The notes: a model not told the origin generated them from the sequence alone. Positions 15,770-20,472 are shown, counted from the stretch's first letter. The stretch: 64,000 bases of DNA from Candidatus Latescibacterota bacterium (GCA_965248265.1 CBDFJF010000002.1:256001-320000); one strand, 5' to 3'. Numbers and translations are program-made.

Positions 15770-15861
15770 GGTTTCTCCCTTGCTTTCTTTGAATGGTTTC
15801 GGACTCAGTGTACGGCATGAGGAGACCGGGCACCACGATTGAGCGGCGAGGTGACTTTCAA

Positions 15862-16845
15862 ATGGAATACAGGATGATCGGCAATACTGACATGAAGGTC
15901 TCCGTCATCGGGCTGGGGACCTGGCCCATGGGTGGGATCGACGGCGGTGTCATCGGCGAGAGCAAGAAGGTGCAGAAGCTAGGTTGGTCGGGCGCGGTCG
16001 ACGAAGAGTCGATGAAGACGGTGCGCAGGGCCGAGGAGTTGGGGGTCAACTTCCTGCACAGCTCCGAGGCCTACGGCGGCGGCCATGCCGAGACCGTGCT
16101 GGGTACAGCGCTAAAGGGTCGCCGCGACCGATTCATCGTGGCGACCAAGGTGCGTCCGATCATGGAGAATGGAGATGAGACCGCGGCTCGCCAGCGCATC
16201 CACGAGGCATTGGAGGGCAGCCTGCGACGGCTGCAGACCGACTACATCGACATCCACCAGCTGCACTCGTTTCCGCACAAGGACACGACGGCAGCCGTCA
16301 TGGAGGAGTACTCCAAACTCCAGCAGCAGGGGAAGGTGCGGCACGTGGCGATTTCGGCTACCGATCCCCAGCGGATTCGTGAGCTCAAGGGCCTCGGTGA
16401 CCTGGTAGCCATCATGTTCGGACAGAATTTGATGACGGCGCGCAACGACGAGGCCTTCGACCTTGCCGCGCGATTGAATATAGGGACCATAATCCTCAGC
16501 TCTCTGCATCAGGGGGTACTGGCCGGTCAGTGGTTCGGCAAGGTGCCCGACATCGGTCCGAACGACAAACGCTACGCCAATTTTACCTCGCCGGAAGCGA
16601 TCAAGGCTTTAGGAGTCCTCAAGGAGTTGGAGTTCCTGACTCAGGACGGAAAGCGCACGATGGCCCAGGCGGCGTTTCGCTATCTCATCGACATGCCCGG
16701 CGTCACCTCCATCCTCACCGGCGCACTGCGACCCGATCAGATCGAGGAGAATGTCCGTGCTCTTGAGACACCTCGGCTGACGGCAACGGAGACTGAGCGC
16801 GCTCTGGCAATTACGGCGGAGGCGACGAAGGTGTGGCAGGGGTAG
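15862..16845 (+). CDS. Aldo/keto reductase
   Basis: MEYRMIGNTDMKVSVIGLGTW, AYGGGHAE, VATK, SLRRLQTDYIDIHQLH. The usual catalytic Asp region reads FLHSSEAY. Confidence 0.9.
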   Translation: MEYRMIGNTDMKVSVIGLGTWPMGGIDGGVIGESKKVQKLGWSGAVDEESMKTVRRAEELGVNFLHSSEAYGGGHAETVLGTALKGRRDRFIVATKVRPIMENGDETAARQRIHEALEGSLRRLQTDYIDIHQLHSFPHKDTTAAVMEEYSKLQQQGKVRHVAISATDPQRIRELKGLGDLVAIMFGQNLMTARNDEAFDLAARLNIGTIILSSLHQGVLAGQWFGKVPDIGPNDKRYANFTSPEAIKALGVLKELEFLTQDGKRTMAQAAFRYLIDMPGVTSILTGALRPDQIEENVRALETPRLTATETERALAITAEATKVWQG

Positions 16846-16853
16846 GGAGGGAT

Positions 16854-17810
16854 CTACTCGATCGGAACCGGTCGGGAGTGGTTGACGTATAGCTCTTCGT
16901 CCGCGGGATGGATGACTTCGGAGATCTTGATCGTCGTCTTGCCGTGCGGCCCGGTGAACGGTACTCCCAAATACTTGGGTTCTTCCCCCACGAACAGGAC
17001 CACAGGTTGGTCCTTCTGAGCGTCGAGTTGTAGGACGTCACCCACCTGGGCCCGGCGGGCTTCGCCCACTGACAACTGGCCGCGACCCAGTTCCGCGCGT
17101 ACGGGCAGGTGGGTCTTTTCGAGACGGCGCTTGTTGCCACGGATCGTCTCCTCGCGGTTCTGGCGTCCCTGACGCACATAGGTCTGCTGACCCAAACGTG
17201 GCAGAATGGATTCCAGTGTGAAGAACGGGTAGCACAGGCTGATCAGGCCCGAAGCGTTTGACGAGCTGACCTCGAAGGCCAGCAGAATGACGATCTCGGA
17301 CGCCGCCGTGATCTGCATGAACTCCGGATTGGTCTCCAGCTCGATGTCGCTGATCTCCACTCTGAGGATGGGTTCCCACGTCGCCTCGAGATCTTCAATG
17401 GTGCGCTTGACGATTTTGGCGAAGATGCCCATCTCAATCTGCGACAGCTGCCGCGCGTCCACACCTGCCGACGAGCCCTTGCCTCCGAAAACGCGATCGA
17501 CGGACGAAAACACTATCGGCATGACGAAATCGAGGATGGCCTGCCCGTTGGTTGGCCCCAGGGTGAACTGATAGGAGCAACTCGGGTTCGACAGCGAATT
17601 GATGAACTCGGCATAAGTTGTCTGGTCGACGAAGGCCGTGTCCACGTCGACGACCTGACGCATGGCACCCGAGAACGTCGAGCTCAGAAGACGGGCGAAG
17701 TTGTCGTGCAGGTTTTCCAGCGTGCGCAGCTGGTCTTTGTTGACCCGCGCCGGATGCTTGAAGTCATAACTGGTGATGATGCGATTGGCGTTCATTTCGG
17801 TATTGGCCAT
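16854..17810 (-). CDS. fliM: Flagellar motor switch protein FliM homolog lacking the N-terminal CheY-binding peptide
   Basis: YDFKHPARVNKDQLRTLENLHDNFAR, VDQTTYAEFI, FGGKG (GGxG FliG-binding loop), ETNPEFMQI, LCYPF, C-terminal SpoA-like domain (VRAELGR…VGDVLQL). Confidence 0.9.
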   Translation of the reverse strand: MANTEMNANRIITSYDFKHPARVNKDQLRTLENLHDNFARLLSSTFSGAMRQVVDVDTAFVDQTTYAEFINSLSNPSCSYQFTLGPTNGQAILDFVMPIVFSSVDRVFGGKGSSAGVDARQLSQIEMGIFAKIVKRTIEDLEATWEPILRVEISDIELETNPEFMQITAASEIVILLAFEVSSSNASGLISLCYPFFTLESILPRLGQQTYVRQGRQNREETIRGNKRRLEKTHLPVRAELGRGQLSVGEARRAQVGDVLQLDAQKDQPVVLFVGEEPKYLGVPFTGPHGKTTIKISEVIHPADEELYVNHSRPVPIE

Positions 17811-17822
17811 GGCGTCTTTCTC

Positions 17823-19079
17823 CTAGCACATCTCATCTGCGTCGCCGCGGACTATCGTGATCTTACCCTGCTCCTCCAGCCGACGCACCTGCTGCACGAT
17901 ACGCAGCTGCACCTCCTCGACCTCCGACAGCCGCATCGGCCCCAGGGCCTCCATCTCATCTCTTACGGACTTGCGCACCTCTTCGGACATGTTGACCAGG
18001 ATCTTCTCCTTCAATACCTCCTCGGCCGCTTTGAAAGCGACGACGAGATCTTTCTGGTCTGTCTCCCGCAGAAGCAGCTGGATCTCCCGGTCTGTCAGCT
18101 TGGAGATATCGGCAAAGGTGAACATCAGATTGCGCACCGCCTCAGCTACCCCCGGATCTTGTGCATGGAACTGGTCGAGAACGTTTTTCTCCACACTCGA
18201 ACCGGTCAGATTCAGTATGTCAGCCACGACCTTGGGACCGCCAACATCCTGATTTCCCCTGAGGATGTCGGCTAGCGACGCTTCCAGGCATTCCTCGACG
18301 ACGCGGATGAGAGCCGGAGTGATGTTCTCCATCGTCGAGATGCGGTAAGTCACGTCCGACTGCATGCGCTCGGGCAGCTGGGCCAGGATGCCGGCCGCCT
18401 GGTTTGGATCGAGCTGGGACAACAGGAGGGCGATGGTCTGCGGATGCTCGTGCGAGATGAAAGGCGCCACCTGCTCCGGCGCCACATTCTTCAACAGATA
18501 AAAACCCCCACCCTCATCCCCGGGCTCGGAACGCAACAGCCACTGCCCCCGGCCCGTGCCGAAGGCTCGCTCCAGGAGAGCGCTGGCGAGGGCGGGTCCG
18601 CCGTCCTGCAGGTAGTCTCCGGCCTCGATCCGCTGACGCAGGGTCTCCAGCGCGTGCATGGCAACATGATGCTTGACCTCTGGCTCTTCGGCGACGGCGC
18701 TGGCAATCCAGCGAGCGTCGGCTTCGCGCAGGTGTTTGACAACTAGACCACCCACTTCCGCGCCCAGACCAGACATCAGGGCGGCTATCTCTTGACGAGG
18801 TGACATCCCAGCCTGCGGTCCCTCCGTCGCGTCCCCATCATCACGATGAATGATCGTGCGCACGACAGCCGCCGCGGCCTGGTCGTTTTCCCAGACAAAG
18901 GCATGCATGCTGCCGCTCTGTACACCTTGTGGATAGTGATGTCGTGACCGTGCTGACTGGGTCGACGATTCCGAAGCCGGCTCCTTCTCTTGAGCGACTT
19001 CGGCAGTTCGGGCCGGGGCCGAGGGTTTGGGTGGAATCTTGGGCCAGACGACCAGTTGGACTCTATTCTCCTGGTTCAT
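17823..19079 (-). CDS. fliG: Flagellar motor switch protein FliG homolog with ~90-aa N-terminal extension
   Basis: EHPQTIALLLSQL, DVGGPKVVADILN, LMFTFADI (MFxF), NMS…LGPMRLSEVEEVQ…RRLEEQGKI; start overlaps the stop of the upstream FliN-like gene. Confidence 0.9.
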   Translation of the reverse strand: MNQENRVQLVVWPKIPPKPSAPARTAEVAQEKEPASESSTQSARSRHHYPQGVQSGSMHAFVWENDQAAAAVVRTIIHRDDGDATEGPQAGMSPRQEIAALMSGLGAEVGGLVVKHLREADARWIASAVAEEPEVKHHVAMHALETLRQRIEAGDYLQDGGPALASALLERAFGTGRGQWLLRSEPGDEGGGFYLLKNVAPEQVAPFISHEHPQTIALLLSQLDPNQAAGILAQLPERMQSDVTYRISTMENITPALIRVVEECLEASLADILRGNQDVGGPKVVADILNLTGSSVEKNVLDQFHAQDPGVAEAVRNLMFTFADISKLTDREIQLLLRETDQKDLVVAFKAAEEVLKEKILVNMSEEVRKSVRDEMEALGPMRLSEVEEVQLRIVQQVRRLEEQGKITIVRGDADEMC

Positions 19080-19339
19080 GCCGGCACCTTTGGTGGTTCG
19101 AGAAGTCGGGTGACGCGGATGGCCATCAAATCGGTGACGACGACGATTTCGCCCTCGGCGAAGAGCCGCTGGTTGATCCGAATGTCGAAGGCTTCGCCGG
19201 CAAGCTTGAAGAAATCGATGCAGTCTCCCTTCTTCAGGCGTCGTGCCTCACCAAGGGTGATCTCCCTACGACCCAACTCCACGGTAACATCCGCATAGAC
19301 GTTGTCGACGCTGGCGCGATCGGGTTGCTGGTCAGTCAT
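19076..19339 (-). CDS. FliN/SpoA-domain protein (second copy)
   Basis: VTVELGRREITL…LAGEAFDIRINQRLFAEGEIVVV…IRVT SpoA pattern; GGAGGAGGAG RBS before ATG at 19339. Confidence 0.82.
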   Translation of the reverse strand: MTDQQPDRASVDNVYADVTVELGRREITLGEARRLKKGDCIDFFKLAGEAFDIRINQRLFAEGEIVVVTDLMAIRVTRLLEPPKVPA

Positions 19340-19349
19340 CTCCTCCTCC

Positions 19350-19625
19350 TCACGCCGGCTCGACGATCTCGATGATGCGCACGCCAAAATTCTCACCGAT
19401 GGTCACCACTTCTGCGCGCGCAAACAACTTGCCATTCAGCATTACCTCGATGGGCTCGCCGACGGTCTTTTCCAACTCCACCAGTGACTGGTCACCCAGT
19501 TCGTGGATGTCTGCCATGGTACGGCGGGTGCGGCCGAGTTCGGCGGTGAGCATCATCGGCATCGATTCCAGCAGTTCGATGTTGTCTGCGGGGGTTGACG
19601 CTTTGGTATCCGCCTTCTTTGCCAT
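19350..19625 (-). CDS. fliN: Flagellar motor switch protein FliN homolog
   Basis: NIELLESMPMMLTAELGRT…VELEKTVGEPIEVMLNGKLFARAEVVTIGENFGVRIIEI; GAGAGG RBS. Confidence 0.9.
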   Translation of the reverse strand: MAKKADTKASTPADNIELLESMPMMLTAELGRTRRTMADIHELGDQSLVELEKTVGEPIEVMLNGKLFARAEVVTIGENFGVRIIEIVEPA

Positions 19626-19698
19626 TGGGTGCCTCTCTGACTTGGGTTTGTCGTCTGCCGCGTACAATCGTGTATTGAGGTGCGAGGGACAAGGAAAT

Positions 19699-20472
19699 TT
19701 ATCCAGTAGCGCCCTTACAACTCCAGACTGAACCGGTGGTGTAGGTATTGCGTTCGGAACAGAGAAACTCGGCGACCTCTGCTACTTCTTCAGGATCGGA
19801 GTAGCGTCCCAGTGGGTTGCCAGGATCGGCCAGGTGTTCGGCCGAGAATCGCGGTACCACCATGTCCGTCAGCGCTCTGCCGGGCTCGACGCCGTTGACG
19901 AAGACGCCCTGCCTGGAATAAGCATTACCCAGCGACTGGATGAGACTATAGACGGCGCCCTTGGACACGGCGTAGGGCAGCTTGTCCGGCGAGCCGAAGC
20001 GGGCGGCCGAGGTGATGGTCACGGTGCGTCCCCAGCCACCCTCCAGCATGTGCGGGATGGCGGCATGGTGGGCATGGAAGACGCCGTGCACGTTGATGGA
20101 CATGACCTTCGAAAACTGCTCGGCCGATTGCTCGTGAAAGGGCGCTTCAATTCCAAGTACCCCAGCAGCGCATGCAAGGATGTCCAGTCGTTTGAACGCG
20201 CTGACAGCGGCTTCAGCGGCGGCCACCACTTCGGCTTCGATTGTGACATCGGTGCGACAGAAGATTGCTTCTTGCCCGAGGGCTATGATGTCGTTGACCG
20301 TCTGCTGACCCTGCTCTTCCAACAGATCGGCGATGACGACATCGCGGCCCTCGGCTCCGAAGCGCAGGGCCATGGCACGGCCGAGCCCACGGGCGCCGCC
20401 GGTGACGAGGGCGGCACGGCGTTGTTTTGGCGCGGCAAAGCGGAGCTCGCGTGGATCAACCGGAGATGTCAT
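19699..20472 (-). CDS. Short-chain dehydrogenase/reductase
   Basis: TGGARGLG, YAVSK catalytic motif, NGVEPG, PLGRYSDPEEVA. Confidence 0.88.
   Translation of the reverse strand: MTSPVDPRELRFAAPKQRRAALVTGGARGLGRAMALRFGAEGRDVVIADLLEEQGQQTVNDIIALGQEAIFCRTDVTIEAEVVAAAEAAVSAFKRLDILACAAGVLGIEAPFHEQSAEQFSKVMSINVHGVFHAHHAAIPHMLEGGWGRTVTITSAARFGSPDKLPYAVSKGAVYSLIQSLGNAYSRQGVFVNGVEPGRALTDMVVPRFSAEHLADPGNPLGRYSDPEEVAEVAEFLCSERNTYTTGSVWSCKGATG

Follow-up and report, generated by a model that had tools for sequence, protein, structure and literature searches.

A conserved flagellar switch-protein cassette in a Latescibacterota genome with a FliF-tail-like extension on its FliG

In the ordinary flagellar motor each C-terminal tail of FliF, the protein of the membrane/supramembrane (MS) ring, fills one groove in the N-terminal domain of FliG (FliG_N) and anchors the cytoplasmic switch complex (C ring) on the MS ring; the FliF_C:FliG_N unit was reportedly described by Lynch in 2017 as a 'split domain'. 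Spirochaetes have the paralogs FliG1 and FliG2. According to the reports cited here, the domain formed when FliG_N folds together with the FliF C-tail has an architecture like that of the middle domain, FliG_M (PMC7355467, PMC8956890), linkage of FliF and FliG in one polypeptide is structurally tolerated (PMC6079021, PMC10941966), and 'duplicate fliG genes' occur in species with multiple flagellar systems (PMC4642947). The subject of this analysis is a four-gene cassette, fliN-fliN-fliG-fliM, in a stretch of 64,000 nucleotides (the window) from a Candidatus Latescibacterota bacterium, corresponding to C2:256001-320000 of a 7.32-Mb assembly of two contigs (C1 and C2). The FliG of this cassette carries an N-terminal extension that, as judged by profile comparison, resembles the C-terminal FliG-binding tail of FliF. 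The extension, present on every cassette FliG, is what is new here; no description of stand-alone cassettes of the order N-N-G-M or of natural fusions of a FliF tail to FliG was found in the literature searched, most subscription journals being outside its reach.

Likeness of the FliG extension to the FliF tail

The extension has a conserved core that was found in all cassette FliGs, in all three cassette types of the genome, and was absent from lone FliGs (monocistronic genes) and from FliGs encoded beside FliF. A proline, a serine, a tryptophan and an alanine of the core are invariant in 10 diverse sequences. A hidden Markov model (HMM) built from 11 extensions was searched against the 82,282 stop-to-stop open reading frames (ORFs) of at least 50 amino acids in the genome. 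The three cassette FliGs were retrieved as self matches, and the best non-self match was to residues 489-511 of the 513-residue FliF (E 0.021, 16.5 bits). In the reverse direction, an HMM from six FliF tails of the family retrieved FliF and then two cassette FliGs with E values of 0.057 and 0.46. The extension and the FliF tail are reciprocal best non-self matches among these ORFs. Direct alignment of the extension profile with the FliF-tail profile by hhalign gave a probability of 93.9% (E 1.6e-7, 35 columns). When 30 outgroup FliF tails, mostly from Bacillota, were used as the HMM, the FliF of this genome was found with E 4e-8 and the best cassette FliG only with E 7.9.

The extension and FliG_N have diverged together, and FliG_M and the C-terminal domain (FliG_C) have stayed near those of the lone FliGs. 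The FliG_N of the window is 46-53% identical to that of the orthologs at two related loci (L014 and L015) and 30-32% identical to that of the genome's own lone FliGs, while FliG_M and FliG_C are 81-87% identical (FliG_M 83-87%) to those of three near-identical lone FliGs of the same genome. In the public annotation the window FliG is a protein of 361 residues starting at Met58, which omits the first 57 residues and with them part of the extension. Met1 is favoured as the start because its codon overlaps the stop of the preceding gene (ATGA) and a motif at the far N-terminus is conserved across orthologs. This motif, Val-Val-Trp-Pro followed by acidic and proline-rich residues, is present, at times in a looser form, in 23 alignment rows of cassette FliGs, where it is predicted with low confidence (45-56 in the score given below); no other ORF of the genome matched it at E < 3, and it may be a docking motif for a partner.

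Structure prediction of the full-length FliG with AlphaFold2 (60-row alignment) gave a mean predicted local distance difference test score (pLDDT) of 83.8, with residues 51-80 at 90-96 as two helices. For residues 44-200, the N region modelled by itself from 26 rows, the pLDDT was 86.5 and the predicted template modelling score (pTM) 0.74. Residues 13-112 of the latter model (FliG 56-155, the extension helices and the first FliG_N helices) aligned with solved structures as one armadillo (ARM)-like domain. The closest target was FliG_C of 4fhr_B, residues 236-318, with Z 8.9 and a root-mean-square deviation (rmsd) of 2.1 over 82 residues, and FliG_M domains were matched with Z 8.3 (3hjl 103-189) and Z 7.0 (4fq0_C). 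FliG_N alone matched the FliG chains of FliF:FliG co-crystals (5tdy_B, Z 7.4, rmsd 2.0, 66 residues; 5wuj_B, Z 7.2; 5tdy_D, Z 6.3). Values of Z of 8-9 are modest for small helical domains, yet the top-ranked targets are FliG's own domains. The FliF-FliG fusion chain 8z4d was absent from the structural match lists, and no superposition of tail and FliG_N on one chain was obtained. For the whole protein the model matched Salmonella and Aquifex FliG structures with Z 19, and its FliG_C matched that of T. maritima with an rmsd of 1.0-1.5 A. Prediction of a two-chain complex between the extension (44-87) and FliG_N (88-200) scored 0.47, with 0.00 as the best of three controls, contacts agreeing by at least 88% between runs and a partner pLDDT of at least 61. 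This result, graded 'weak support', carries no weight here: the threshold is passed by 2 of 110 mismatched pairs as well as by 58 of 80 solved complexes, and passes at or below 0.60 comprise 7 of the 80 solved complexes and both passing mismatches. The pass may also reflect likeness, since a like complex (FliF_C:FliG_N) has already been solved.

It is improbable that the extension is a lineage-specific helical add-on resembling FliF by chance, the cassette then being a regular second set of rotor proteins that attaches to FliF and serves under other conditions. Chance would suit a short, alanine-rich segment with weak individual E values (0.021, 0.057 and 0.46) and a FliF-tail HMM that does not retrieve the window FliG, yet it would also have to yield reciprocal best matches among 82,282 ORFs that coincide exactly with the final 25 residues of FliF, the profile alignment by hhalign, and the alignment of extension plus FliG_N to complete ARM-like FliG domains. 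A second rotor set would agree with the lack of fliG in the flagellar gene cluster described below, which leaves the motor in need of an unlinked FliG, but five lone FliGs, with no extension, very short branches and an invariant arginine at the stator contact, are better candidates for the motor.

The cassette genes, their relatives and their distribution

The identities of the four genes, all on the minus strand, were confirmed by Pfam and NCBIfam matches (Table 1). The window FliG scored 270.8 bits with TIGR00207 against a cut-off of 226.7, and PF14842, PF14841 and PF01706 all exceeded their cut-offs. The coordinates and junctions agreed with the original prediction, made from the DNA alone, of four tightly coupled switch genes flanked by an aldo-keto reductase and a short-chain dehydrogenase/reductase: FliNa and FliNb are separated by 10 bp, the stop of FliNb overlaps the ATG of FliG, and FliG and FliM are separated by 12 bp. 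FliNa starts at the ATG at 19625 with a GAGAGG box, the mechanically extended ORF reaching a TTG at 19667, and FliNb starts at the ATG at 19339, which is preceded by GGAGGAGGAGGAG with a strong GGAGG run, its mechanical ORF reaching a GTG at 19396. Retention of the motifs for C-ring assembly was likewise borne out, with EHPQ (as EHPQT), the Gly-Gly linker (VGGP) and MFxF (as MFTF) in FliG, the GGxG loop (FGGKG) in FliM, and the SpoA domains. The claim that the 64 kb hold no other flagellar or chemotaxis gene stood for FliF, FlhA, MotA-family, flagellin and CheW-domain proteins, for which genome-wide family searches gave no match inside C2:256001-320000; FliE, FliH, FliI and FliL were not searched one by one. 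No sigma-70-like promoter was found for the cassette, and terminator-like sites were at chance frequency (3 against 2.8 expected). Upstream of the window cassette, the other cassettes and the lone FliGs there was no sigma-28-like box of the type that precedes several flagellin genes.

Table 1. Features of the cassette region, in window coordinates
Feature	Position	Strand	Evidence or remark
Aldo-keto reductase (flanking gene)	15793-16845	+	
fliM paralog, 318 aa: FliM middle domain + C-terminal SpoA	16854..17810	-	PF02154 E 7.4e-51, PF01052 E 2.2e-13
fliG paralog, 418 aa: N-terminal extension + FliG_N + FliG_M + FliG_C	17823..19079	-	Pfam, TIGR00207
FliG_C with MFTF and torque helix, residues 304-409	17853..18170	-	PF01706 E 7.5e-38
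Glu367 codon, aligned to Salmonella FliG R281	17979..17981	-	HMMER alignment to 8umd_B
FliG_M with EHPQ motif, residues 201-272	18264..18479	-	PF14841 E 4.5e-27
FliG_N, residues 92-182	18534..18806	-	PF14842 E 1.1e-19
FliF-C-tail-like segment of FliG, residues 47-81	18837..18941	-	Predicted helices 58-64 and 66-78
Far N-terminal motif, FliG residues 1-20	19020..19079	-	V-V-W-P, then acidic and proline-rich residues
FliNb (fliN paralog b)	19076..19339	-	SpoA/FliMN_C, PF01052 E 7.5e-17, 61.5 bits (cut-off 23.8)
FliNa (fliN paralog a)	19350..19625	-	SpoA/FliMN_C, PF01052 E 1e-19, 70.6 bits (cut-off 23.8)
Short-chain dehydrogenase/reductase (flanking gene)	19699-20472	-	

The torque helix of the window FliG was compared with that of Salmonella FliG (8umd_B), in which K264, R281, D288, D289 and R297 are taken here to be the residues contacting the stator protein MotA. 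The charges of K264, D288, D289 and R297 are kept as K350, D374, E375 and R383, and the arginine R281 is not kept, E367 standing in its place. This column holds Arg in all 20 lone FliGs and all 13 FliF-adjacent FliGs compared; across 27 cassette FliGs it is occupied by Glu in 14, Lys in five, Arg in three, Gln in two, and Ala, Thr and Pro in one each. The charged residues of the torque helix are stated in general terms to determine rotor-stator contact (PMC7355467). Five MotA-family matches were found in the genome, none near any cassette; this, and the variety of residues in the R281 column of cassette FliGs, gives no indication of a dedicated stator with a compensating change of charge.

The window FliM scored 225 bits with TIGR01397 against a cut-off of 219.6, the match starting at profile position 27. 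Its YDFKHP box is preceded by 13 residues, and it lacks the CheY-binding peptide of the LSQxEIDALL type, which is carried by the 357-residue flagellar FliM of the same genome, to which it is 77.6% identical. The peptide is kept at the start of the cassette FliMs of loci L015, L020, L024, L100, L105 and L115 and is absent from the FliM of L014 and from the three cassette FliMs of this genome, so that its loss is peculiar to the window copy and a few others and is not a trait of the family. The original prediction had described the interfaces toward the MS ring, CheY and the stator as apparently altered; this holds for the window copy (FliG_N, the CheY peptide and Glu at R281), and as a description of the family it fails for the CheY peptide, which most orthologs keep. 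An insertion of approximately 100 residues between the CheY peptide and the middle domain was observed in the cassette FliMs of L015, L020, L024, L105/L028 and L093. The scores of FliNa and FliNb with TIGR02480, 81.5 and 58.6 bits, are both under the cut-off of 84.05, and both proteins passed PF01052. FliNa is 60.5% identical over 76 residues to the FliN of the flagellar cluster, and FliNb is 68% identical over 72 residues to a FliN-type protein of 180 residues encoded at C2:3519228-3519770.

The genome encodes a single FliF, a single FlhA (one FHIPEP match) and ten flagellins. One flagellar cluster, at C2:4.094-4.120 Mb, comprises in order flgC, fliE, fliF, fliH, fliI, fliJ, flgD, flgE, motA, motB, fliM, fliN, fliOPQR, flhB, flhA and flhF, names that rest on order, size and family matches, with not every gene scanned. 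From the usual slot between fliF and fliH (C2:4115021-4117625) fliG is missing, and an unlinked FliG must therefore serve the motor. The cassette genes are not the sole copies of their kind, since approximately nine FliG, eight FliM and nine FliN paralogs were found in the genome; family searches gave 12 FliG_C and 8 FliM matches, which were sorted by tblastn and ORF extraction. Five of the FliGs are full-length lone FliGs in unrelated neighbourhoods (C1:265586-266641, C1:710486-711529, C1:1502012-1503193, C1:384404-385618 and C2:750807-751862), three of which share 85-89% DNA identity confined to the coding region. None of the five is accompanied by its own FliM or FliN; every tail-bearing FliG, in contrast, is encoded with a FliM and two FliNs. 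Two sister cassettes complete the set. The first (L132, C2:1677730-1680312, N-N-G-M) encodes a FliG with extension, FliG_N and FliG_M and without FliG_C. In the second (L127, C1:357620-363151, M-N-N-G) the FliG is a protein of 1031 residues with the architecture FliG_N-FliG_M-HisKA-HATPase-REC, and the second FliN (359 residues) is fused, according to Pfam, to a formylglycine-generating enzyme (FGE)-sulfatase domain; to judge by its domain content, this cassette resembles a scaffold of switch proteins coupled to a two-component kinase.

Other observations on switch proteins and promoters of the genome are recorded here. Switch-domain fusions are encoded at C1:823409-824536, C1:657150-658355, C1:778480-779196 and C1:1005191-1006243; FliG_C is joined to an adenylate/guanylate cyclase, a portion of the FliM middle domain is joined to an extracytoplasmic function (ECF) sigma factor, a further protein has FliG_C in tandem, and in another the FliM middle domain follows an unrelated N-terminus. 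Despite the many switch paralogs, the 7.3-Mb genome has only one CheW-domain match (C1:2062435-2062821), in a CheA-like frame of 766 residues. Boxes of the TAAAG-N15-CCGATA type precede several flagellin genes and are absent upstream of the window cassette, as is a CGATAT-like box common to the upstream regions of the lone FliGs at C1:265586, C1:710486 and C2:750807.

The FliGs nearest to that of the window are from metagenome-assembled genomes (MAGs) labelled Latescibacterota or Gemmatimonadota. FliF is encoded beside FliG in none of 45 such loci (L009-L053) and in most outgroup loci (Zixibacteria, Ignavibacteria, Bacillota and others). The order N-N-G-M recurs in 9 of 51 related loci (L014, L015, L020, L024, L028, L046, L050, L052 and L053 among L009-L059), and two further loci, L023 and L025, have variant cassette orders. 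A single frame of 924 residues with FliM-, FliN- and FliG-like parts at L023:3249-6023 is either a fusion or an assembly artefact. Comparison of 11 cassette loci, the window region included, revealed that the four cassette genes alone are widely common and that the neighbours differ.

In a tree of 62 FliG rows, which omits rows shorter than 240 residues and four FliG_C-only proteins of the genome, the window FliG belongs to a clade of seven cassette FliGs with a support of 95 in the Shimodaira-Hasegawa-like approximate likelihood ratio test (SH-aLRT). This clade lies within a lineage-specific radiation that also holds short-branched clades of lone FliGs, apart from 13 FliF-adjacent FliGs. In the FliM tree (34 rows) the sequences of L014 and L015 join that of the window with a support of 97, and 21 cassette FliMs group at 93 apart from the flagellar FliMs. 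A tree of the N domain alone places 20 cassette FliGs in one clade with a support of 99; in a tree of the middle and C-terminal domains the cassette FliGs merge with one lone clade (29 rows at 95) that is unresolved inside. Recent gene conversion between these domains of the window FliG and those of the lone FliGs was considered and is neither supported nor contradicted by the latter tree. The results support a conserved and separately evolving paralog set, distinct by sequence from the flagellar copies, in agreement with the neighbourhood conservation and separate clades looked for in the original prediction.

The cassette is under purifying selection, and the relaxed selection that would have spoken against a retained function was not seen: the ratio of nonsynonymous to synonymous substitution rates (dN/dS) was 0.05-0.30 for 15 of 16 gene pairs with four orthologous loci, one pair giving no estimate, and these ratios are rough because dS is saturated (1.5-5). 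A decaying duplicate without a function of its own is very improbable on these grounds, even though the window copy has lost both the CheY peptide and the conserved arginine and the cassette is patchy across the family, for the four frames are intact, the gene order recurs in the nine loci, and the invariant residues of the extension are kept in all 10 sequences.

A search of 1.84 billion proteins with the extension profile gave 40 representatives at E <= 0.001, of which 26 have FliG_N, 23 FliG_M and 13 FliG_C, the rest being fragments or a few low-complexity matches. Within the phylum the extension was found in 15 of 168 genomes, all of one family (f1), namely the genome of the window and 14 of 75 others, and in none of the 92 genomes of other families, counts in which kin are not independent and absences are limited by incomplete MAGs. 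All 15 have flagellar genes. FlhA was found in 13, and the two without an FlhA match (83% and 92% complete) have nine and five flagellin genes. In one genus (g17) the same 4 of 31 genomes have both the extension and FlhA. This distribution ties the cassette to motility. Since 18 of the 31 FlhA-positive genomes of the family are without it, the extension is accessory.

Proposed role of the cassette

The cassette is interpreted, with modest confidence, as encoding a switch-like complex that is independent of the MS ring and tied to motility, and in which FliG carries the FliF tail in cis. The cassette is one of a family-specific set of paralogous cassettes that combine two types of FliN with a FliG and a FliM. 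Its FliG would be a natural fusion with a copy of the FliF C-terminal tail directly ahead of FliG_N, and the fusion may have originated by a duplication that started within the 3' end of fliF and continued into fliG. With the tail supplied in cis, FliG_N would be a complete and stable domain in the absence of FliF and inaccessible to it, so that the protein would neither need nor easily accept a FliF tail; alternatively, the tail could be swapped in trans between neighbouring subunits. This FliG would form, with the FliM and the two FliNs of the cassette, a ring or a smaller oligomer unattached to the MS ring. Assembly of FliG, FliM and FliN should persist because FliG_M with EHPQ, the GGxG loop of FliM and the SpoA domains are intact. 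Since only the tail-bearing FliGs have a FliM and FliNs of their own, the cassettes probably build separate complexes, and the lone FliGs probably work in the motor alongside the flagellar FliM and FliN.

The job of the cassette is most likely to regulate motility or to handle signals for it, as it occurs only in flagellated members and most orthologs keep the CheY peptide. The window copy itself probably neither responds to CheY nor takes torque well, having lost that peptide and carrying Glu at the stator-contact arginine. The motor-uncoupled ring of the original prediction survives in part: uncoupling from the MS ring is plausible because the interfaces differ in the window copy (the FliF-tail-like segment and the diverged FliG_N), and a role unrelated to motility finds no support, extension-bearing FliGs having been found only in genomes with flagellar genes (15 of 15).

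Several results weigh against a complex of this kind. The single E values linking extension and FliF tail are weak (0.02-0.5), and the FliF-tail HMM lists two sister cassette FliGs and, at E < 10, not that of the window. In the search of the extension profile against 1.84 billion proteins no FliF was found at E <= 0.001. A Foldseek search with the model of the N region returned nothing at E <= 0.001, the top rows being FliG_N chains with E values of 0.016-0.28. We infer the placement of the extension in the position of the FliF tail from pLDDT and the alignment as a single domain rather than from contacts. Full-length fusions of FliF with FliG retain the ability to form rings (PMC6079021), so a tail in cis does not by itself prevent ring formation. 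The FliG_M and FliG_C domains (81-87%) and FliM (78%) are close to flagellar-type copies, making mixed assembly with the real C ring possible, and incorporation into the motor would explain equally well why the cassette is found strictly together with flagella.

These last points bring in an alternative that is doubtful but deserves consideration, that the cassette supplies the one flagellar C ring with substitute or additional subunits that alter its behaviour. Such subunits might enter through FliG_M/FliG_C stacking and FliM/FliN contacts, for which EHPQ, the Gly-Gly linker, MFxF and GGxG are retained, and, being unanchored, CheY-blind and differently engaged with stators, might act as a brake, a clutch or a bias setter. 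The identity of FliG_M and FliG_C to three lone FliGs and of FliM to the flagellar FliM would allow it, and the tree of the middle and C-terminal domains does not resolve the cassette FliGs and one lone clade as distinct groups. Docking on FliF would, however, be opposed by the tail in cis and the diverged N domain, and a FliM and two FliNs for each tail-bearing FliG, with none for the five lone FliGs, fit separate assembly better. The presence of the cassette only alongside flagellar genes and the CheY peptide of most orthologous FliMs agree with a place in the motor, while the 18 FlhA-positive genomes of the family without the extension indicate that it is unneeded for a working one.

For a complex separate from the motor, the sister cassettes are informative. 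Their domain content indicates that they have clearly left torque generation, and the lack of FliG_C in one and the kinase in its place in the other suggest that the family has moved away from torque. A more speculative extension of this interpretation, held only tentatively, is that capture of the FliF tail enabled a free-standing, self-templated, C-ring-like cytoplasmic body that has been turned into a general signalling scaffold. The three cassettes of the genome could then represent stages of one path: a full FliG with an altered torque helix, a FliG without FliG_C, and a FliG_N-FliG_M-kinase/receiver protein accompanied by FliN-FGE. Such a body, if real, would be the first rotor-derived organelle outside a motor or a secretion system.

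A FliG with its own tail would offer a natural test of the FliF-FliG interface, bearing on whether a ring forms without the MS-ring template, what determines its size, and whether rotor parts can be reused in signalling. Should the cassette proteins instead join the motor, they would be genetically encoded rotor subunits that are unanchored and deaf to CheY. The unusual expansion of switch proteins, with five lone FliGs, a fliF-fliH slot without fliG, and fusions to kinase, cyclase and ECF domains, suggests that the C ring is a hub for regulators in these poorly studied and mostly uncultured bacteria.

Comparison with known systems

The sorting platform of injectisomes (SctQ/SpaO/YscQ) resembles the cassette in the use of SpoA-domain proteins in a cytoplasmic assembly. 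It differs in that injectisomes have no FliG, and the two FliNs scored 53.8 and 41.1 with TIGR02551 against a cut-off of 100.8. The genome has one FlhA/SctV-family gene and no second export gate, results that do not support the sorting platform that had been suggested for the cassette. Other second FliGs accompany a second flagellar system or stand alone, unlike that of the cassette; the literature searched yielded no description of a second FliG paralog that bears a FliF-tail extension or has a FliM and two FliNs to itself.

The cassette proteins belong to the same families as those of the canonical C ring of Salmonella, E. coli and Thermotoga, with the same domain order and with EHPQ, the Gly-Gly linker, MFxF, GGxG and SpoA kept. 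Unlike canonical switch genes, the window cassette lies away from fliF and the export genes, has the order N-N-G-M and encodes two distinct FliN types; its FliG carries the FliF-tail-like segment and Glu at R281, and its FliM is without the CheY peptide. In the FliF_C:FliG_N co-fold (5TDY, 5WUJ) FliF_C provides in trans what in the cassette FliG would be provided by the two helices before FliG_N, the difference being that both halves are in one chain.

Further counterparts are the laboratory FliF-FliG fusions of Salmonella and Vibrio, both full-frame and deletion fusions, in which the C-terminus of FliF and FliG are likewise in one polypeptide; PDB 8z4d, found as a sequence match, is such a chain. 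In those fusions the whole membrane-embedded FliF is present and an MS ring is formed, whereas the cassette FliG has approximately 35 tail residues in a natural and conserved arrangement. As this remnant is without a transmembrane or ring-building part, the cassette FliG is expected to be cytoplasmic.

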